DNA from: a virus | Length of the DNA stretch: 24,598 nt | Reading direction: 5' to 3' (one strand) | Virus genome (UHGV): UHGV-0258679 | Shown here: one piece after another, positions 1 through 20,456 of the stretch | Position numbering within the stretch: position 1 is the first letter of the stretch | Layout of the letters: each line of letters starts with the position of its first letter | Position numbers and translations under genes: made by a program | The notes under the pieces: model-generated | What the model was told of the DNA's origin: nothing | Databases searched by the model: none | The model's input: only the letters and a program-made list of their open reading frames with translations

Positions 1-30
1 GTACCCACAATAACACGAGGGGGTACAACA

Positions 31-1010: not shown

Positions 1011-1352
1011 ATGAAAAAGACTATCTACGCAATTATTGTTTCTGTGTGTGTTGGTGGCATCGGTGGATTTGTTTGTGGGTATGACTATTCCGATACTCAA
1101 CATCAAGAGACTATCCGGTCAAATAAGGCCGAGATTAAGGATCTGAATCAGGAGATTAGCCAGTTAGAAAATGCTCTCTCACTCAAAGACAGTGAATATA
1201 GCGAGGTTTATGCAGATAAACAAAAATATTGGAAAGAGAAAGATAATCTCGTTGTTTACGGGATGAAATTGTGTAAGAGCATGAAGGACGAGCGCAGTAG
1301 TTTAATGGAACTTGCCCTTAAAGGTAACGTGACCATCGACTTCAAAGACTAA
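1011..1352 (+). CDS. signal-anchored coiled-coil protein, 113 aa (N-terminal TM helix, periplasmic coiled coil)
   Basis: RBS AAGAGGA upstream; N-terminal hydrophobic segment IYAIIVSVCVGGIGGFV followed by a heptad-like charged region; no lipobox. Confidence 0.55.
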   Translation: MKKTIYAIIVSVCVGGIGGFVCGYDYSDTQHQETIRSNKAEIKDLNQEISQLENALSLKDSEYSEVYADKQKYWKEKDNLVVYGMKLCKSMKDERSSLMELALKGNVTIDFKD

Positions 1353-1644: not shown

Positions 1645-1682
1645 GCCCCTATCGTTATAATACGCGGTAGGGGCGTTTTTGT
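1645..1682 (+). terminator. rho-independent terminator (GCCCCTA / loop / TAGGGGC, then GTTTTTGTTT)
   Basis: 7-bp stem and T-run between the stop at 1628 and the recombinase start; could also be part of a recombinase attachment site (dyad symmetry). Confidence 0.5.
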
Positions 1683-1693
1683 TTGGAAATGGT

Positions 1694-3373
1694 ATGAAAA
1701 CTAAACTGTATTCGTATATTCGCTTCTCGTCTATGCGTCAGAATGATGGTTCGAGTTATGAACGACAAATCAGGATGGCGAGAGAGGTTGCGGCAAAGTA
1801 TGACCTTGAACTGGTAAATGATTATCAGGATCTGGGTGTATCTGCGTTTAAGGGTGCTAACTCCAAAACAGGGGCGCTATCTCGTTTCCTTGATGCAATT
1901 GGTAGATCCGTTCCTGTTGGTAGCTGGCTATTCATTGAAAACTTGGACCGCTTATCCCGTGCCGATATTGTCAGTGCGCAGGAGTTATTCCTTTCAATCA
2001 TCCGTAGGGGGATAACCATTGTTACTGGCATGGATAACAAGATCTACTCGCTGGATACTGTTACCGCTAATCCGATGGACCTGATGTTCTCCATCCTTTT
2101 ATTCATCCGTGGTAACGAGGAAAGTCAGACTAAGCGCAATCGTACTAACTCAAGCGCACTGATTAAGATTAAAGCCCATCAAGAAAATCCCCAGAATCCG
2201 GCAGTGGCAATCGAGGAAGTTGGAAAGAATATGTGGTGGACTGATACCACTTCCGGTTATGTGCTGCCTCATCCGGTGTACTTCCCTGTTGTTCAGGAGA
2301 TTGTGGAATTACGGAAGAATGGACGTTCAACCGCCGAAATACTGGATCACCTTAACGAGACATATACACCGCCACCAGCAGTAAGCAACAAGAAGCATTC
2401 AAAATGGTCACGGGCAATGGTTGAAAGGTTGTTCCATACCCGCGCTTTGATTGGTATCAAGGAGGTCTCTGTCGATGGTGTTAACTATGAGTTAAAGGAT
2501 TATTACCCTCGTGTTATTGATGATGCTACGTTCTATCACCTTAAGAAAAATATTGGTGCTAGAGCATGGAACTTTGGAGACAAGGAAGAAGTTAAACCGA
2601 TCCCCCTGCTTAGTGGTATTGGCCTATTGAAATGTGATCATTGCGGTTGCGCTATGGTTAAAGTGAAGGGAACGAACAAACGTTCTGACCAGTATCGTTA
2701 TACATGTGATGCGACCCGTTCACGTAGACTTGATTGCGAGCATCCAAACTGGAGTTTTCGAGGTGATCAATTAGAGAAAGCTGTATTGCAATTGCTGGCT
2801 GATAAAATCTGGATTGCTGAGGATAAGGCTAATCCGGTTCCGGCTTTGAAAGTACAGGTTGATGAGATATCACGCAAGATTGATAACCTGATTGCCCTTT
2901 CTGCTATGACAGGAGCAACGAAGGAGCTAGCCGATCAGATTACTACCCTCAATAGCGAGCGTGAAACACTCTACAATCAGATCAAGATGGCAGAAGAGGA
3001 AATGTATTCTGTGGACTCTCAAGGCTGGGAGAAGCTCGCAGAATTTGATTTAGAAGATGTTTATAACGAGGAACGACTAAAGGTCCGGTTTAAGATTAAG
3101 CAAGCTCTAAAGCGGATCGGGTGTAGCAGGATTGACAGGAATAAAAACTTGTTTGTACTGGAATACATCGATGGAAAGACCCAGAGAGTTGTAATAGAAA
3201 ATTCAAGAGGAACGAGGAAAGGACAAATCTTTGTCGATTTGAAAACTATCAATGATAGGCAGATTCTGGAGAGTAACGGGCTTGTTTTGCATCCATGTTT
3301 AGACATGCTGACAGATAAGAACTGGAAACCAGAAGAGGAAATACCAGGTCCATTACAGGAATTTGGAATTTAA
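1694..3373 (+). CDS. large serine recombinase (integrase-type: resolvase catalytic domain plus recombinase/zinc-ribbon/coiled-coil C-terminal region)
   Basis: N-terminus YSYIRFSSMRQ matches the catalytic YxRVSTxxQ serine motif; LDRLSR motif; downstream Cys cluster CDHCGCAM...YRYTCD...C is zinc-ribbon-like; about 560 aa. The ORF-track start at 1679 is TTG; ATG at 1694 is the more likely start. Confidence 0.85.
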   Translation: MKTKLYSYIRFSSMRQNDGSSYERQIRMAREVAAKYDLELVNDYQDLGVSAFKGANSKTGALSRFLDAIGRSVPVGSWLFIENLDRLSRADIVSAQELFLSIIRRGITIVTGMDNKIYSLDTVTANPMDLMFSILLFIRGNEESQTKRNRTNSSALIKIKAHQENPQNPAVAIEEVGKNMWWTDTTSGYVLPHPVYFPVVQEIVELRKNGRSTAEILDHLNETYTPPPAVSNKKHSKWSRAMVERLFHTRALIGIKEVSVDGVNYELKDYYPRVIDDATFYHLKKNIGARAWNFGDKEEVKPIPLLSGIGLLKCDHCGCAMVKVKGTNKRSDQYRYTCDATRSRRLDCEHPNWSFRGDQLEKAVLQLLADKIWIAEDKANPVPALKVQVDEISRKIDNLIALSAMTGATKELADQITTLNSERETLYNQIKMAEEEMYSVDSQGWEKLAEFDLEDVYNEERLKVRFKIKQALKRIGCSRIDRNKNLFVLEYIDGKTQRVVIENSRGTRKGQIFVDLKTINDRQILESNGLVLHPCLDMLTDKNWKPEEEIPGPLQEFGI

Positions 3374-3411
3374 GCGGCCTAAATCGACGTATAACGAGCT
3401 AAACACTTTAA

Positions 3412-3434
3412 GGGGTACATCTGTACCCCTTTTT
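3412..3434 (+). terminator. rho-independent terminator (GGGGTAC / loop / GTACCCC, then TTTTT), at a convergent junction
   Basis: GC stem with a T-run directly after the recombinase stop; plus- and minus-strand genes converge here. Confidence 0.6.
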
Positions 3435-3446
3435 AATTTAATTGTA

Positions 3447-4445
3447 TTAAAGAGCCTCTAAAGGGCTTAAATCGAGTTCTAAGTCTTCCGGTGTTAAATC
3501 AGCTAACGGTGCATTCATCCACTGCGATAAATCTCGTTCTATGTCTTCATCACTAATGTAGTTGTTCAGATTGATTGCGTTGGTATCATCAAAATACATT
3601 GGCTTAGATGGGTTGGTGTGGATGTATTCATTGATGAATGATTTAACATCTTTCAGCTTGCTAATCGGTAGCGTTTCTGTGAATCCGCTATTCATTACCT
3701 TACGTGGGATTTTCTTGCCCTGAATATTCTTTTTAATCCCCATTTCTAAATCACCAGCTTTCCATCCAATGTTAAACAAATGTGAGCATTCAAAGGTGAT
3801 TTTCTCGCTGGTGTGCTTCTGGTGTTCTCTTACCCGTTGCATCGGATCTTTGCGAGTGGTAATTCCATATTTGAAAAACTTCTCGCCAACACGAATTAGA
3901 TAAAAGTGCATAGGGCGCTGTGCAAACTTGTTTCTGATAACCTGTTTTCTACCATTCTGAATTGATTTAAGTACACCCCTAACCAAAGGGCATGTTAACC
4001 CGCCTTGTCTGCGGTTATTATGTAAATCACCTTTCTTGTGAATCTTTCCGTGGCACTTACAACGAAGAATTAGTTTAGTGTCAACACCCTGATAAGGTTC
4101 AGCCAGACCTAACACATCCCACCCTATCGGCTTGTAGAACTTGCGAGCGTTTTCTAAGTGTTCTTCTTCGGTAAATCTAAACTTCTTCTTAGGCGGTGAT
4201 ACTCTATCTTTGCCAGTAAACTGACCAGTTAGAACATGACTAATACATGGCGTTTTAACCTTTCCGTTAACTTCTATGCAAACTTTGGTGTTCTGGAATG
4301 GTTTCTTTACAGGAAGCACAAAACCACTGTATAACCATCCATGCACTTGACAAACTTTAATGATTCTGGTTTCATATTCGACCGGAGGGGTCGCACGTTT
4401 GCTTTTTGCGGTAAATTCGATATCCTTTGCTAAAGTAGTATTCAT
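3447..4445 (-). CDS. Zn-finger plus GIY-YIG-like (T5orf172-like) nuclease-domain protein, 332 aa; candidate homing endonuclease or DNA-binding regulator
   Basis: N-terminal half has Cys/His pairs (CQVH, C...C..H, CKCHGKIH); C-terminal half has HFYLIRVGEKFFKYGITTRKDPMQRVREHQ, resembling the GIY...YIG...R...E core; acidic C-terminal tail. Assigned from motif resemblance only. Confidence 0.45.
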   Translation of the reverse strand: MNTTLAKDIEFTAKSKRATPPVEYETRIIKVCQVHGWLYSGFVLPVKKPFQNTKVCIEVNGKVKTPCISHVLTGQFTGKDRVSPPKKKFRFTEEEHLENARKFYKPIGWDVLGLAEPYQGVDTKLILRCKCHGKIHKKGDLHNNRRQGGLTCPLVRGVLKSIQNGRKQVIRNKFAQRPMHFYLIRVGEKFFKYGITTRKDPMQRVREHQKHTSEKITFECSHLFNIGWKAGDLEMGIKKNIQGKKIPRKVMNSGFTETLPISKLKDVKSFINEYIHTNPSKPMYFDDTNAINLNNYISDEDIERDLSQWMNAPLADLTPEDLELDLSPLEAL

Positions 4446-4480
4446 AGTAGTGAATCCTCAATAAAATAATATTCACTACT
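4446..4480 (-). promoter_or_regulatory. perfect 10-bp inverted repeat (AGTAGTGAAT, 15-nt spacer, ATTCACTACT) abutting the start codon of the 332-aa gene
   Basis: Seen directly in the sequence; the spacer contains the probable SD (GAGG); a TATAAAT -10-like hexamer lies just upstream on the minus strand. Confidence 0.4.
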
Positions 4481-4491
4481 ATTTATAAGAA

Positions 4492-4893
4492 TTAATTATT
4501 GTAGTTTTGGAAACCAGTAAGATCGCAAAATGAATCAGTGTCATGTGCTGGGGAACGATGTTCTGCTTCGTCAGAGAAAATGCTTGCTACCGGAGATTCC
4601 ACTTTAATTTCCGGTGCTTCTTCAACATCTGACTTAACTTCTTCGATCACTGGTTCAACTGCTGGAGATTCTTCTTTTGTTTCTTCAATGACGATCTCAG
4701 GTTCTTTCATTGCTTCAACCAGAGACGGATCAACTTCGTCGAATACCACTTTATCATCTGCGGTATATTTGTCTATAATGAAAAAATGGTCAGAAATATA
4801 GCTAACGTCGCCAGCATATTCTAACAAAAAAGCGCCCACCAGAGGCGCTTTTGTTTTATCCATTCCACCGTGATTTTTTTGATCTGGAATCAA
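4492..4893 (-). CDS. acidic hypothetical protein (Glu/Asp/Pro-rich C-terminal half); true start uncertain
   Basis: ORF from the track; its first 10 codons overlap the peptidase gene and a terminator hairpin (4830-4858) lies inside its 5' end, so the real product may start later (for example at MKEPEIV). Confidence 0.3.
   Translation of the reverse strand: MIPDQKNHGGMDKTKAPLVGAFLLEYAGDVSYISDHFFIIDKYTADDKVVFDEVDPSLVEAMKEPEIVIEETKEESPAVEPVIEEVKSDVEEAPEIKVESPVASIFSDEAEHRSPAHDTDSFCDLTGFQNYNN
4830..4858 (-). terminator. rho-independent terminator on the minus strand (AGCGCC / loop / GGCGCT, then TTTTTT)
   Basis: GC stem plus a 6-T run immediately after the M15 peptidase stop codon. Confidence 0.6.
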
Positions 4894-5209
4894 TATGCGT
4901 AAAGGTTTTATATTTTCCTAAGCCGTATTGAGTAGGATATTTCCCATCAAGATAAGCATGAACAATATCAGGCGAGACACCCTTGATAACAATGTCAGCC
5001 GCACGGCCTCGAACGTGATAGCTATTGGCTGCCCCGCCTACATTCTTGTTATGAGTCGGGCAACGGTTGCCACTGTTAATAATCACTGGTTTACCGAAGT
5101 GCTCTCGTACATCCTCAAGAATCACCAGTAATTCAGCGTCGATTGTATCATAATCACATTTTCCGCATTTACATTTAAATTCCTTGCGAGAAAAATGCTT
5201 ACTTAACAT
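4856..5209 (-). CDS. peptidase M15 family (M15A, YcbK/DUF882-like) zinc peptidase; candidate endolysin
   Basis: Motifs SGNRCPTHNKNVGGAANSYHVRGRAADI and FTHIDSR match the conserved M15 zinc-ligand signature; RBS AGGGGGT; small size (117 aa) typical of phage M15 lysins. Confidence 0.75.
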   Translation of the reverse strand: MLSKHFSRKEFKCKCGKCDYDTIDAELLVILEDVREHFGKPVIINSGNRCPTHNKNVGGAANSYHVRGRAADIVIKGVSPDIVHAYLDGKYPTQYGLGKYKTFTHIDSRSKKSRWNG

Positions 5210-16925: not shown

Positions 16926-19900
16926 TTACCCTAATTTAGCTTCAATTGCAGCAAGACGTTCACGAAGAAGTTTATTTTCTTCGCTCATTTCTTGGACCGC
17001 TTTAATTAAAAGCGCGTTCACTGCGGAGTTTGAAATTGTTAAAATTTCTTCTGGGTTATCAAAACCACCAATTTTTGCGGTTTTAACAGCTTCCGGTAAT
17101 ACCTCTTGTAAATCCTGTGCGATAATACCAATCTCATGACCTATAACTTCTCGGTCATTAAGAGATTTAACTTTATCGTAGGTTTTAACTTTGAGTTTAT
17201 TTACCTTATCCACCGCATTTTCTTCGTAATCTTCAACATTAATTTTCAGACGACGATCGGAACGAATATAAACATCGTTAAAGTTTCCGTTACCAGTGGC
17301 ATGAAATTCTCCACTTGCATGGAATTGATAATCAGCACCCTGAACATGAAGAACCGCTGCCGCAGTATTATTACTATCACCGGGACAATGAACGTCCATA
17401 GCAGCGATGTAGTTACGCCCCCAATCAACCGCTTTCCAAATAGCATGAGCACTATCAACGCTTTGTTGACAGTCAACCAACAAACCAGCAGGTCGGTCTC
17501 TCCATGCAACATATGCACCACCAGAAACCTCACCACGGATAAGTCCTTGATCTGCGGCATAAGGAACACGCCCTTCCAGTTTAATCATCGCGCCCTGGAA
17601 GTGATGTGTAAATTGTCCACCGTGGTTATTGCGAATATGTAAAATACCCTCATCTGTAGCCCAGATAACAGCCTTTTCCGTATCGCTATCATCTCTAAAC
17701 CAGATATGGCGTGCACCAGTTGAGTTTTTGACGGTTATTCCGTTAGGTCCATGCACGGTCAAAGCACCAGATACATCAAATAAAACGGTGTTGTCTGTTC
17801 TACGTTCAGTATAGAAGTGATAACCTTTGGAATCGCCAACTTCCATTACTGCCGCGCGACCAACTTCTGAATTTCCCCAATTATTAATAGAGAATCGTTC
17901 AGAGCTATTATTCATCTGATTTAGGTATAATGTACCATCAGTGAATGTTTCGCCAAAGAAACGAGTTTTAACGCCGTTAGTACCCCCCACGCGTTCAAAT
18001 TCAGCCAAGAAACCTTTGGAATCTCGCATACTCAAAACGTTATTGCGTCCTGTATTACTGTTACCCCAATGGATTAATTCAATATAGTCCATTGACTGAC
18101 GAGACCCTGATCTAAACACCATATTATCTTCGATGCGGGTGCTACCATCAATTCCCAGATGTAAACAGCGTGCGGTAGCTGTGCCACCTAGATCCAATCC
18201 ACCTTCGGCAAAATCATAGCTGAATGGTCTACGGCTATTCCACCCACCGAAAGAATCTTTTAAATCGGTAGTAAGAATATGGAAGCTAGAACCATCATTT
18301 CTAAAAATTAAGCCATAGTTGCCACCTTTAACAGCCAAACGAGCATTTTCAGATAATGCAACTTCGCTATTCATTACAATTTTCTGGCCTTTACCGCCAG
18401 TAATATGTAATTCACCGTTTTCGATCAAGTTTATAGAGTTTTGACCGTTATCGTTCCACCAAATAAAATCTTTGGTCGTCAAATCACCAAAACCAAACCA
18501 ACCATTACGAACATCTTGACCAGTGCGATAATCCATGAAATTAAAATGGCTTGCTTCGTTTGGTCCTCGACGAATATCAATACCAGCATTAGAACCGGAA
18601 CCTAAGCCACCATCGATGGTCAATCTACGAATATGTAACCCGGTTGCAGCCGAAAGCAATAATTGTTGGTTTACATCGTCATATCCAGTAGCAAGACGAT
18701 AATTTTGATCATCAACAGTTTCATGCCAGATAGTGGCAGGAGCAGAACTACGGAAGCGACGCAACATCTTTTTGCTGTTAGTTTGTTGTTCGTTCAAATG
18801 CTCAATGTCATATTGGCCTTGATGGTTTCCAGCAAAGTTTAACGTCCCACGGTTGCTAAAGTTATTGAACGATGAAATGTTAAGAGCATCAAAAATTTCA
18901 TCTGCAACAGGTTTTTCACCACCCAGATATTCAGGAGTATCCAACAGGTTTAAAGAAACACCACCGGAAGAAACTTGATATTCTGCTAAAACAAATCCTG
19001 TATGTGCACCGTAGTAAGCGTAAAGATCATAATTGTCGCCATCGGTTGGAATAGCGCAAAAATGTTGTTCATAATGCCAAATAGTATAATACGCATTGAA
19101 TACAACACCTTTCGGGCTATTGTTGCCGCATCGAATCACCAATTCGATAATATTGGCTTGTCCATTCTGTCCGACGTTATAACCGTTGCCACCAACTAAG
19201 CGGATCTTAGCCGTGCGACCGTGTTGTTGTGGCATTGTCAAAGTGCCTAGTTTAAACCAACCGCCCTCGATACCAAAATTAAGCGTCTTCTGGAACAGGC
19301 GGTCAATTTCTGCTTTCGAATATGCGCCAATTTCAGCCGGAGTAGGTTTATCGCCTTCATGATACATGCGGTGAGAATATGCCAAATGTCCCAATTCATC
19401 ATAGCCGTATGTTCTTACAGTAGCATGTGGATTAGACCCATAAGTGAACTCGAAGCCACGAGCATGATTAACACCAGATGGATGGGGAACATGCAAGATC
19501 ATAGCAATATGACCCGCCAGGTCATTCATGCGAAATGCACCAAAGTAATCAAGATTAAGAGCACTCGGATCATCAAAAGGGTTTGCGGTCTTAGACAGCA
19601 AATAACCATCAGTATAAGTGTTTACGTGTTTTTTGATGTACTTGCCATCACTTGATCCATCGGCTGCATCAATACGGCTTTCTAAGCGTGCCAATTCAGA
19701 ATCAGTGTAAGACTTGTTATTGTCAACTTTGCTATGAATTGCTGTATTTTTGGCTTCAACATCACGGGTTAATGCTGCGACGTTATCCGCTGCCTCTTGC
19801 TTATTGGCTGCAATCACACCAGTAAGGTTATTGTAGGTGTCAGTTAACTGATTTTCCGCATAGGCGTGATTTGCTGCGATAGTGCGGTCAGTTTCTGCCT

Positions 19901-20456
19901 TAATCAAATCAACTTTGTCATTGATTGCTTTGTGATTGCTTACGATGGTTGCATCGGTACGGGATTTAATATCATCAACTTTTTTATTGATGCGGGTGTC
20001 CAGTTCCTGAGTTGCTACAGCAGCCGCATTTTTATTAGCGTTGATGGTATCCGACAATTCAGCTTTAACACCAGCAAGATCGGAAGCAGCTTTATTTTTA
20101 TTGGCCTCGATTGTCGCGTCGGTTTCGCGTTTAATTACATCAACTTTATTGTTAATTTCTGCGTGATTTGCTGAGATGGTTGCATCAGTAGTTTGTTTAA
20201 TTTCATCTACTTTAGCGTGAATATTGCGGTCATTTACTGCAATTGTGCTATCTAGTTCTTGTTTGTTAGCATCAACTTTAGATTCTAGTGCCGCGTGAGT
20301 TTCAGGAGAAACAGAGATTTGAACTACTTCATGATCTCGGTCTTTGGTAAAAATAACATGGTCTTTAAGGTTGATTGCTACCTCACCGACCTGTAATTGT
20401 TCCGGCGTTGGCTTTTTGCCAGCTACATTAGTTCGCTTAAATTGGATTGATTGCAT
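16926..20456 (-). CDS. long tail fibre, 1176 aa, with N-terminal repeat shaft and C-terminal intramolecular chaperone (peptidase S74-like) domain
   Basis: About seven tandem 22-aa repeats of the form KVDxIKxxTDATIxAN; C-terminus ...SDRRLKINVEDY...GIIAQDLQEVLPEAV... matches the endosialidase/T5 L-shaped-fibre chaperone signature; RBS GAGGTGA. Confidence 0.8.
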   Translation of the reverse strand: MQSIQFKRTNVAGKKPTPEQLQVGEVAINLKDHVIFTKDRDHEVVQISVSPETHAALESKVDANKQELDSTIAVNDRNIHAKVDEIKQTTDATISANHAEINNKVDVIKRETDATIEANKNKAASDLAGVKAELSDTINANKNAAAVATQELDTRINKKVDDIKSRTDATIVSNHKAINDKVDLIKAETDRTIAANHAYAENQLTDTYNNLTGVIAANKQEAADNVAALTRDVEAKNTAIHSKVDNNKSYTDSELARLESRIDAADGSSDGKYIKKHVNTYTDGYLLSKTANPFDDPSALNLDYFGAFRMNDLAGHIAMILHVPHPSGVNHARGFEFTYGSNPHATVRTYGYDELGHLAYSHRMYHEGDKPTPAEIGAYSKAEIDRLFQKTLNFGIEGGWFKLGTLTMPQQHGRTAKIRLVGGNGYNVGQNGQANIIELVIRCGNNSPKGVVFNAYYTIWHYEQHFCAIPTDGDNYDLYAYYGAHTGFVLAEYQVSSGGVSLNLLDTPEYLGGEKPVADEIFDALNISSFNNFSNRGTLNFAGNHQGQYDIEHLNEQQTNSKKMLRRFRSSAPATIWHETVDDQNYRLATGYDDVNQQLLLSAATGLHIRRLTIDGGLGSGSNAGIDIRRGPNEASHFNFMDYRTGQDVRNGWFGFGDLTTKDFIWWNDNGQNSINLIENGELHITGGKGQKIVMNSEVALSENARLAVKGGNYGLIFRNDGSSFHILTTDLKDSFGGWNSRRPFSYDFAEGGLDLGGTATARCLHLGIDGSTRIEDNMVFRSGSRQSMDYIELIHWGNSNTGRNNVLSMRDSKGFLAEFERVGGTNGVKTRFFGETFTDGTLYLNQMNNSSERFSINNWGNSEVGRAAVMEVGDSKGYHFYTERRTDNTVLFDVSGALTVHGPNGITVKNSTGARHIWFRDDSDTEKAVIWATDEGILHIRNNHGGQFTHHFQGAMIKLEGRVPYAADQGLIRGEVSGGAYVAWRDRPAGLLVDCQQSVDSAHAIWKAVDWGRNYIAAMDVHCPGDSNNTAAAVLHVQGADYQFHASGEFHATGNGNFNDVYIRSDRRLKINVEDYEENAVDKVNKLKVKTYDKVKSLNDREVIGHEIGIIAQDLQEVLPEAVKTAKIGGFDNPEEILTISNSAVNALLIKAVQEMSEENKLLRERLAAIEAKLG

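Follow-up and report, generated by a model that had tools for sequence, protein, structure and literature searches.

A putative CapR/T5orf172-type homing endonuclease gene beneath a conserved start-codon hairpin at the integrase end of an Escherichia coli prophage

Introduction

Why would a temperate phage carry, directly beside its integrase gene, a gene for a zinc-finger protein with a nuclease-like C terminus whose start codon lies in an inverted repeat? The question is raised by positions 3,447 to 4,480 of the virus genome UHGV-0258679, a stretch of 24,598 nucleotides (nt) that is called the window below. An earlier reading of the letters alone (the original prediction) saw here a protein of 332 amino acids (aa) with several Cys/His clusters and a GIY-YIG-like C-terminal segment, encoded as a monocistronic unit behind a palindrome, and proposed that it could be a free-standing homing endonuclease, a nuclease-derived regulator, or an effector of defense or antidefense.

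We conclude that the gene product is a member of the zinc-finger plus GIY-YIG-type (T5orf172) DNA endonuclease family, with an activity that is predicted from sequence. Putative homing endonucleases that combine CapR, DUF723, or DUF4379 units with T5orf172 have been described in ICP1 and many other phages (PMC8096241, PMC10448857); the known family thus gains one member, and no new kind of system is involved. With a probability of roughly 60%, we favor the interpretation that the protein is a sequence-directed T5orf172-type endonuclease on a cassette of the homing endonuclease gene (HEG) type, which would be exchanged, spread, and lost by recombination and whose translation would be throttled by an mRNA hairpin. 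The argument is built on homology, fold, residue conservation, purifying selection, synteny, mosaic distribution, and the conservation and covariation of the hairpin.

Results

CapR-like repeats precede a T5orf172-type nuclease domain

The predicted gene is real: the open reading frame (ORF) list and its translation place a 332-aa coding sequence with an ATG start on the minus strand (3447 to 4445), comprising CapR-like zinc-finger repeats and a C-terminal T5orf172/MUG113 nuclease domain of the GIY-YIG superfamily. An AlphaFold (AF2) model with a predicted local distance difference test score (pLDDT) of 84 shows two alpha-beta-beta-beta units (aa 21 to 75 and 93 to 152), a helical connector, and a beta-beta-alpha-beta-alpha domain (aa 178 to 280; 3606 to 3914 on the minus strand), followed by a C-terminal tail of lower confidence. 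The last of these domains carries Y182, K192-x-G194, R204, E234, K238, and E257.

Several lines of evidence bear out the proposed GIY-YIG-like character of the C-terminal segment. The protein matched PHROG 681 ("endonuclease") over aa 87 to 292 with an E value of 4e-20, and tblastn retrieved T5.141 ("endonuclease"), genes labeled "putative homing endonuclease," and a gene of Krischvirus Whisky that encodes a 486-aa protein with five CapR units and DUF723. Iterated searches yielded 30 relatives, the distant ones bearing PF21817 (CapR), PF05265 (DUF723), PF14311, and PF13455 (MUG113) above the Pfam thresholds; PF21817 and/or PF05265 are present in relatives P0014 to P0030, and precomputed PF13455 matches exist for P0019, P0026, and P0028. 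A 391-aa allele from the same locus passes MUG113 with 27.5 bits. When the profile of the subfamily was compared by hhalign with that of a neighboring 193- to 198-aa family, the probability was 93% (E value of 3e-7), with Y182, K192-G194, R204, E234, and E257 paired in the alignment; two members of that family score just above the Pfam T5orf172 cutoff, and three more have a precomputed T5orf172 match. Foldseek gave 108 matches at E values of ≤1e-3 in BFVD, a collection of predicted viral structures, and those with names included "CapR homology domain-containing," "zinc-ribbon," "GIY-YIG domain-containing," "homing endonuclease," and "T5 Orf172."

Residue conservation points the same way. Y182, K192, G194, R204, E234, K238, and E257 are kept in 28 of the 30 relatives, and Y182, R204, E234, and E257 are invariant across alleles of 27 to 85% identity, in which the nuclease domain is the best-conserved part. 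The original prediction had named the fold and the catalytic Tyr, Arg, and Glu as its own check, and the predicted structure indeed has the GIY-YIG alpha/beta fold, with Y182, R204, and E257 as the conserved first Tyr, Arg, and metal-binding Glu. The domain order that had been called inverted was also found, with the repeats at aa 21 to 152 and the nuclease domain behind them, but it is not unusual, since a DNA-binding domain (DBD) first and a nuclease last is the defining architecture of the phage HEG family that combines CapR/DUF723 with T5orf172 (PMC8096241, PMC10448857).

The Cys/His clusters proposed earlier reduce to one site that is conserved across relatives (C129, C131/H132, and C152). 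It belongs to repeat 2 (3990 to 4169, minus strand), a CapR/DUF723-like unit according to its subthreshold Pfam CapR match, the Pfam domains of its relatives, and a table of ligand residues, and its putative ligands are C129, C131, H132, and C152. Only C129, H132, and C152 are general among the relatives. The ancestral fourth ligand, C155, has become Val, Ile, or Leu in the subfamily, in which residue 131 has become Cys, an apparent exchange of zinc-ligand positions. Repeat 2 can probably still bind zinc. Repeat 1 (4221 to 4385, minus strand) has the same alpha-beta-beta-beta fold by the secondary structure of the model, and the residue table shows that its zinc ligands are not conserved except for C32; C56, C67, H35, and H70 are not kept even in an 85%-identical homologue.

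At the other end of the protein, a codon comparison of 14 alleles and their alignment revealed the peptide E-L-D-L-S-P-L (aa 323 to 329; 3459 to 3479, minus strand). A tail of the type E-L-D-L-[S/E]-P-[L/V] is conserved in alleles down to 30% identity, with codon differences that are synonymous. It is present in nearly all nuclease alleles and missing from the family of acidic proteins encoded just upstream. We suspect that this peptide is a short linear motif that binds a partner; it could be assigned to no known motif.

Alleles are exchanged, spread, and lost at a fixed locus

The window covers the integrase end of a siphovirus-like temperate phage or E. coli prophage, of a family that occurs in 58 to 62 of 5,426 complete E. 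coli genomes, with ycdX as the integration site or, in some members, hicB. Homologues of 48 to 85% identity in E. coli, Salmonella, and Proteus all are the last gene on the late strand and converge with a serine recombinase gene. The same slot holds distant alleles, one of 337 aa at 30% identity and the 391-aa allele at 27%, in E. coli prophages with a 98 to 99% identical integrase; taken together, the alleles in the slot are 27 to 85% identical to the window protein. In Escherichia, Salmonella, and Proteus prophages, the nuclease codiverges with its flanks (50 to 67% aa identity, compared with 70 to 75% for the integrase and 63 to 74% for the endolysin). A search of GTDB species representatives with the subfamily profile found no relatives, and in IMG/VR only near-identical copies were found.

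A sign of recent lateral spread is an island of 99.4 to 100% identity and about 1.1 kb (3374 to 4486, minus strand), delimited by segment identities against loci L031 to L033, L004, and L003, with breakpoints at about 4486 and 3380. Its flanks are diverged, the adjacent integrase gene being 82 to 92% and the upstream ORF 84% identical, and the integration site is different. Prophages sharing this cassette sit within ycdX beside the csg operon or within hicB beside ydcR (window positions 1 to 30, L003, and L004 versus L031 to L033), and the N-terminal halves of the integrases are 82% identical at the nt level between the two integration-site groups.

The window allele occurs in 18 of the approximately 58 to 62 related E. 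coli prophages, and a further copy, a pseudogene in UTME-9, is broken up into two ORFs. About 18 genomes, judged by span with four of them checked, have a deletion that joins window position 4697 to 3492 at a CCNGAR microhomology, as defined by blastn junctions in L007, L008, and L009. The missing segment (3493 to 4696, minus strand) leaves the last 15 nuclease codons fused to the start of the upstream ORF in a scar ORF, MDKT...MKEPE|DLELDLS.L*, which is kept in L007, L008, L009, and L034. Three genomes have another deletion that left the hairpin, the ATG, and a 7-codon mini-ORF (e.g., L005). We considered whether the gene-less alleles are pristine homing sites with a tail derived from a resident small gene, and rejected this because the acidic ORF family lacks the tail and the nuclease alleles have it. 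The tail, with its synonymous variation across alleles, belongs to the nuclease, and the gene-less alleles are therefore deletion scars. The original prediction would have taken universal conservation of the gene at this locus in all relatives as a refutation of homing, and the data come close to this: every relative examined has some allele or a scar, and no pristine empty site was found.

Sporadic presence with degenerate copies and a near-identical gene in otherwise diverged genomes, both seen here for the window allele, are features of the HEG class, and such genomic signatures have been used to call T5orf172 genes HEGs (PMC10448857). Other T5orf172 or CapR genes lie within 1 kb in relatives. 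The ratio of nonsynonymous to synonymous divergence (dN/dS) between alleles is 0.09 to 0.26 across all domains. Between the window protein and P0002, dS is 0.38 in the DBD and 1.72 in the nuclease domain, and these unequal values imply intragenic recombination. Of the roles proposed originally, a free-standing gene of the homing endonuclease type is the best-fitting family, and homing itself is plausible.

A conserved, probable mRNA hairpin reaches into the start codon

The palindrome reported at 4446 to 4455 and 4471 to 4480 is real and somewhat longer than claimed. An inverted-repeat search and RNA folding define an mRNA hairpin (4444 to 4482, minus strand) with a 15-nt loop and a perfect 12-bp stem, whose arms, ATAGTAGTGAAT and ATTCACTACTAT, lie at 4471 to 4482 and 4444 to 4455 and extend imperfectly to 17 nt (4439 to 4455 and 4471 to 4487). 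The 3' arm holds the A and U of the AUG and fills the spacer between it and the Shine-Dalgarno (SD) sequence GAGG (4456 to 4459), which forms the 3' end of the loop. The region folds at -15.2 kcal/mol, with a z score of -2.9 against shuffles. According to 200 Markov simulations, chance alone should produce a perfect 10-bp repeat whose loop measures 3 to 40 nt 1.06 times per window on average, and a perfect 12-bp repeat 0.06 times.

It is mainly conservation with covariation in 16 related loci, stronger evidence than these length statistics, that leads us to judge the repeat nonrandom. All of the 16 loci that were examined keep the module, one scar and the most diverged alleles (down to 27% protein identity) among them. 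Pairs were counted for the 12-pair helix in an arm-only alignment of 15 distinct sequences from which loops had been removed by hand, a small and related sample, and 85% of the cells are paired. Stem pair 4 is G-C in eight sequences, A-U in four, G·U in two, and mismatched in one. The covariation score of 0.200, compared with 0.133 in shuffles, was reached by 2 of 500 shuffles. The outer extension alternates between an A-U/U-A type and a C-G type, the latter pairing CC with the GG of the SD sequence. Two Salmonella alleles have a weakened stem, and for one of these (L012) an alternative hairpin is predicted in which the SD sequence itself is paired.

The original prediction left two roles for the palindrome, an operator or a translational hairpin, and it is the latter that the data favor. 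The six single-sided changes that keep pairing all create G·U or U·G wobbles in the sense strand, which would be mismatches in DNA; this favors an RNA structure. The spacing between the conserved 9-bp arm cores varies from 16 to 21 nt. Together with the covariation, these features argue for an RNA hairpin acting on translation rather than a protein operator, and the hairpin probably limits translation initiation of the nuclease gene. The arm motif was also considered as a repeated operator and rejected, as no other copy is present within the window.

The 5' foot of the stem overlaps TATAAATA (4480 to 4487, minus strand), a string that resembles a T4 late promoter. Its use as a T4-late-type promoter throughout the phage was rejected because its two occurrences in the window match the chance expectation and thus show no enrichment. 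With only TAAATA of the string conserved in relatives, no sigma-70 match, and no enrichment, the promoter half of an analogy with T4 hairpins is unproven. Two independent short-read assemblies, L027 and L028, break exactly at the hairpin, with the contig ending 37 nt upstream of the start of the homologue; in those genomes, the conserved 5' module may be repeated or may form a junction that is ambiguous for assembly.

Neighboring genes and transcription context

On the minus strand, the nuclease gene follows genes for a major head/protease fusion, the major tail protein, the tape measure, the distal tail protein, the tail tip, and an M15 endolysin. It converges with the gene for a large serine recombinase, the integrase (1679 to 3373, plus strand), which has the Pfam domains Resolvase, Recombinase, and Zn_ribbon_recom and is the same syntenic neighbor in all relatives. 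A function of the nuclease gene product as a recombination directionality or excision factor for this integrase was rejected, because prophages with 92 to 98% identical integrases lack the gene.

The suggestion that the gene is monocistronic is not supported: a co-oriented ORF ends 46 nt before its ATG, with no sigma-70-like promoter in between. The terminator said to bracket the gene fares no better. The G+C-rich hairpin between the convergent genes, found in the terminator scan and the inverted-repeat search (3410 to 3431, no strand assigned), has its T-run on the plus strand only and is a canonical terminator mainly for the integrase gene. The nearest clear upstream terminator on the minus strand lies after the endolysin gene (4858 to 4822), where the inverted-repeat search and the sequence show GCGCC...GGCGC followed by T6 (4822 to 4858, minus strand).

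Alignment of upstream ORFs from 10 loci shows that the co-oriented ORF (4492 to 4863, minus strand) is a truncated copy of a conserved acidic protein with an isoelectric point (pI) of about 4. The full-length protein (118 to 156 aa; pI of about 4.05) precedes the nuclease gene in many relatives (L004, 4980 to 5426; L011, 3503 to 3943; L014, 3487 to 3957; L016, 2587 to 2943; L018, 2514 to 2933). In the window copy, the N terminus has been replaced (breakpoint at about 4766) and the C terminus lost. Conceivably, the acidic protein is an inhibitor or a DNA mimic.

Between the endolysin gene and the acidic ORF (insertion at about 4766), some relatives carry on the opposite strand a second gene, of 193 to 198 aa, with one CapR unit and T5orf172 (L004, 5473 to 6054; L010, 2906 to 3490; L018, 1878 to 2474; L030, 1378 to 1959; L033, 5076 to 5657). 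A conserved TATAAGATAAAT string precedes it, and no 5' hairpins were found upstream of the 193-aa T5orf172 genes. In some relatives, a gene for a 345-aa CapR-like protein, with a strong terminator-like hairpin just upstream of its SD sequence, is inserted between the endolysin gene and a 115-aa ORF, i.e., between homologues of window positions 5209 and 5219 (L009, 1782 to 2819; L015, 836 to 1873; L034, 2164 to 3201). In other versions of the slot, a DEAD-box helicase of the UvsW_N type is encoded together with a CapR-only protein of 185 aa, and one genome has a recombination mediator that resembles UvsY (L005, 4150 to 5640; L006, 4786 to 6833; L012, 1772 to 3846; L036, 6728 to 9102). These recombination genes are of the T4 type and occur here in a siphovirus-like temperate prophage. 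The tail genes of the window include a 1176-aa tail-fiber gene (16926 to 20456, minus strand) with segments that are 77 to 92% identical at the nt level to the T-even distal long tail fiber gene gp37. A 113-aa ORF upstream of the integrase gene (1011 to 1352, plus strand) has weak PADLOC matches to RTasSLATT and RTasRmuC (E values of about 5e-4), which are probably due to a generic small domain.

Discussion

A mobile-type nuclease or a resident one?

The mechanism that we propose goes beyond these observations in predicting nuclease activity, a DNA target, homing or gene conversion, an effect of the hairpin on translation, and zinc binding. The two CapR/DUF723-type units of the N-terminal half would read the DNA target, and the C-terminal domain (aa 178 to 280) would cut the DNA, using Y182, R204, and E257; the ELDLSPL peptide probably contacts a partner. 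The cassette is the most distal part of the late operon and converges on the serine integrase gene, and highly diverged alleles may replace one another by recombination through conserved ends, made up of the hairpin and the first approximately 9 codons on the 5' side and of the C-terminal tail plus the hairpin shared with the integrase gene on the 3' side. One allele appears to have spread unchanged between diverged prophages in recent times, and copies are lost via deletion or frameshift. The hairpin may keep translation low by pairing the A and U of the AUG together with the spacer; some alleles would pair the SD sequence as well.

Several observations weigh against this interpretation. On its own, the 332-aa protein scores below the Pfam cutoffs for MUG113 (aa 192 to 273; E value of 0.13; 13.4 bits against 22.3) and CapR (aa 102 to 134; E value of 0.014; 16 bits against 24.2), and it has no Pfam match to T5orf172 (PF10544). 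Neither Foldseek with its model against PDB nor a sequence-profile search of PDB sequences returned a solved structure. The second Tyr of the GIY-YIG motif, which is Tyr in this protein, is Phe or Ile in most alleles, the usual form in T5orf172 (K-I/F-G). The interval that separates the gene from the co-oriented ORF upstream yielded no sigma-70-like promoter. An intact HEG-less target site was not found among the relatives examined, each of which has a nuclease allele or a remnant of the gene, and no T5orf172 HEG has been demonstrated to home in an experiment (PMC10448857). Finally, strong purifying selection at a fixed locus is as compatible with a gene that has long been resident and may be useful as with one that is actively homing.

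This last point leads to the rival that we take most seriously, despite rating it as clearly less probable, namely, that the nuclease has been domesticated and serves the phage or the lysogen, either as an exclusion or competition effector that cuts superinfecting or coresident phages and satellites or as an initiator of recombination together with UvsW/UvsY-type genes. The integrase-proximal position is fixed in Escherichia, Salmonella, and Proteus prophages, where the gene codiverges with its flanks, dN/dS is 0.1 to 0.2 across all domains, and the C-terminal peptide is under purifying selection as well. Moreover, the accessory slot at the prophage end also houses the UvsW_N helicase, the CapR-only protein, and UvsY in other alleles, and T5orf172 has a domesticated precedent in Odn (PMC10448857). 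Against this stand the deletion or frameshifting of the gene in roughly a third of the related E. coli prophages, a translation that is apparently blocked by the hairpin with no lysogenic promoter found, and the lack of diversifying selection in the DNA-binding half. In PADLOC-DB 2.0, there was no significant match, the best being PD-Lambda-1 (E values of 0.005 to 0.007), in which 22 to 44 residues cover the GIY motif. The present data do not separate an HEG-type cassette from a domesticated nuclease. A bolder reading, which we regard as doubtful, is that the slot is dedicated to an allelic "nuclease cassette" and determines incompatibility or exclusion between related temperate phages, with alleles that cut rival or scar DNA, conserved ends that serve as homology arms for cassette conversion, and a C-terminal peptide that recruits a partner. 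If so, the cassette would have built-in homology arms, formed by the hairpin and the MK(T/L)AFAKDI codons at the 5' end and by the ELDLSPL tail and the shared terminator at the 3' end, and the peptide would have a host or phage partner, e.g., a clamp- or recombination-type factor. More speculatively still, TATAAATA and the hairpin might silence the nuclease in the lysogen until a T-even-type phage supplies late transcription.

We consider it improbable that the protein is a nuclease-dead, CapR-like DNA-binding regulator, for example of integrase and excision or of late genes, with the palindrome as its autoregulatory operator. CapR is a repressor derived from the same family (PMC8096241), and I-TevI represses itself through an operator that overlaps its promoter (PMC2988022); in addition, most alleles have another residue in place of the second GIY-YIG Tyr, the gene adjoins the integrase gene, and the arm sequences are strongly conserved. 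However, CapR itself lacks a T5orf172 domain, whereas here that domain is the best-conserved part and its four residues Y182, R204, E234, and E257 do not vary in alleles as little as 27% identical. The absence of the gene from prophages with 92 to 98% identical integrases means that it cannot be an essential excision factor, and neither the variable arm-core spacing of 16 to 21 nt nor the six of six single-sided changes to G·U on the sense strand fits an operator. Even less probable, in our estimation, is that the inverted repeat is a chance feature or a mere recombination boundary. About one perfect 10-bp repeat is expected per window, the cassette breakpoint at about 4486 falls right at the foot of the repeat, and in two assemblies the contig ends 37 nt before the start. 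Yet the perfect stem has 12 bp, which is expected only 0.06 times, and has been kept in 16 loci with compensatory G-C to A-U changes in four and G·U intermediates in two, while the Salmonella allele L012 with its weakened stem is predicted to form an SD-pairing hairpin instead.

The assignment to this nuclease family has practical consequences. The "hypothetical proteins" of its 90% cluster (396 member sequences) can now be named, and the CapR/T5orf172 nuclease family is extended from lytic phages to a temperate enterobacterial prophage lineage. With inducible lysogens, natural scar alleles, and a natural pseudogene, E. coli offers a tractable setting for asking, for the first time by experiment, whether T5orf172 genes home. 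The conserved hairpin may likewise be a clean case in which to study, outside T4, how translation of a toxic nuclease is controlled.

Comparison with known systems

The GIY-YIG nuclease domains of the SLX1, At-HIGLE, and UvrC type have 13 to 16% identity, other partners and accessory domains, and no match at the sequence level. The GIY-YIG HEGs of T4 (I-TevI and SegA to -G; PMC2988022) have a catalytic core of the same superfamily and likewise a separate DNA-binding region containing a zinc finger. They differ in domain order, as the classical type has its GIY-YIG domain at the N terminus and the window protein has the nuclease at the C terminus. The window protein also belongs to the T5orf172 branch, in which K-[FYI]-G replaces Y-I-G, and its host phage is not T4-like. 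Hairpins that sequester the ribosome-binding site are documented for I-TevI, I-TevII, I-TevIII, segB, and mobE, where transcripts that can be translated arise from a promoter placed inside the hairpin (Edgell, Gibb & Belfort 2010, PMC2988022). The window gene likewise has a hairpin over the initiation region, which limits translation in T4 and by analogy may do so here. At the 5' foot of its stem is TATAAATA; in T4 HEGs, a late promoter at this position produces transcripts that lack the hairpin. In the prophage, this string is not conserved in other alleles or enriched in the window.

ICP1 Odn cuts PLE satellite DNA. This domesticated antisatellite nuclease, T5orf172 plus RepA_N, resembles the window protein in joining the T5orf172 domain to an exchangeable N-terminal DNA-binding module, which is CapR-like here and not RepA_N. 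Its nuclease activity depends on a conserved Glu (cited in PMC10448857). The CapR repressor of the PLE capsid operon shares the CapR-type DNA-binding unit but lacks a nuclease domain, whereas the window protein has one, with catalytic-type residues under purifying selection.

The closest counterparts are the HEGs in which CapR, DUF723, or DUF4379 is combined with T5orf172, such as ICP1 Gp121, Gp165, and Gp174 and T5.141 (Barth, Dunham & Seed 2023, PMC10448857; Netter et al. 2021, PMC8096241). They have the same repeated N-terminal CapR units and C-terminal T5orf172/MUG113 domain; they too are free-standing intergenic genes beside conserved phage genes, with variable presence, frameshifted or deleted copies, domain shuffling, and nearby paralogues, and many such proteins are among the structural matches of the window protein. 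In contrast to these cases, which occupy multiple sites in lytic phages, the gene described here forms an allelic series at one fixed, integrase-proximal locus of a temperate prophage. It also belongs to a subfamily below the Pfam thresholds that has lost C155 and gained C131 and that carries the ELDLSPL tail and the conserved 5' hairpin. The family and its architecture are thus already published, and hairpins that sequester the ribosome-binding site on HEGs are textbook T4 biology. What the locus adds is modest: a single-locus allelic series in temperate enterobacterial prophages, the covariation of the hairpin, the swap of a zinc ligand, and the conserved ELDLSPL peptide.

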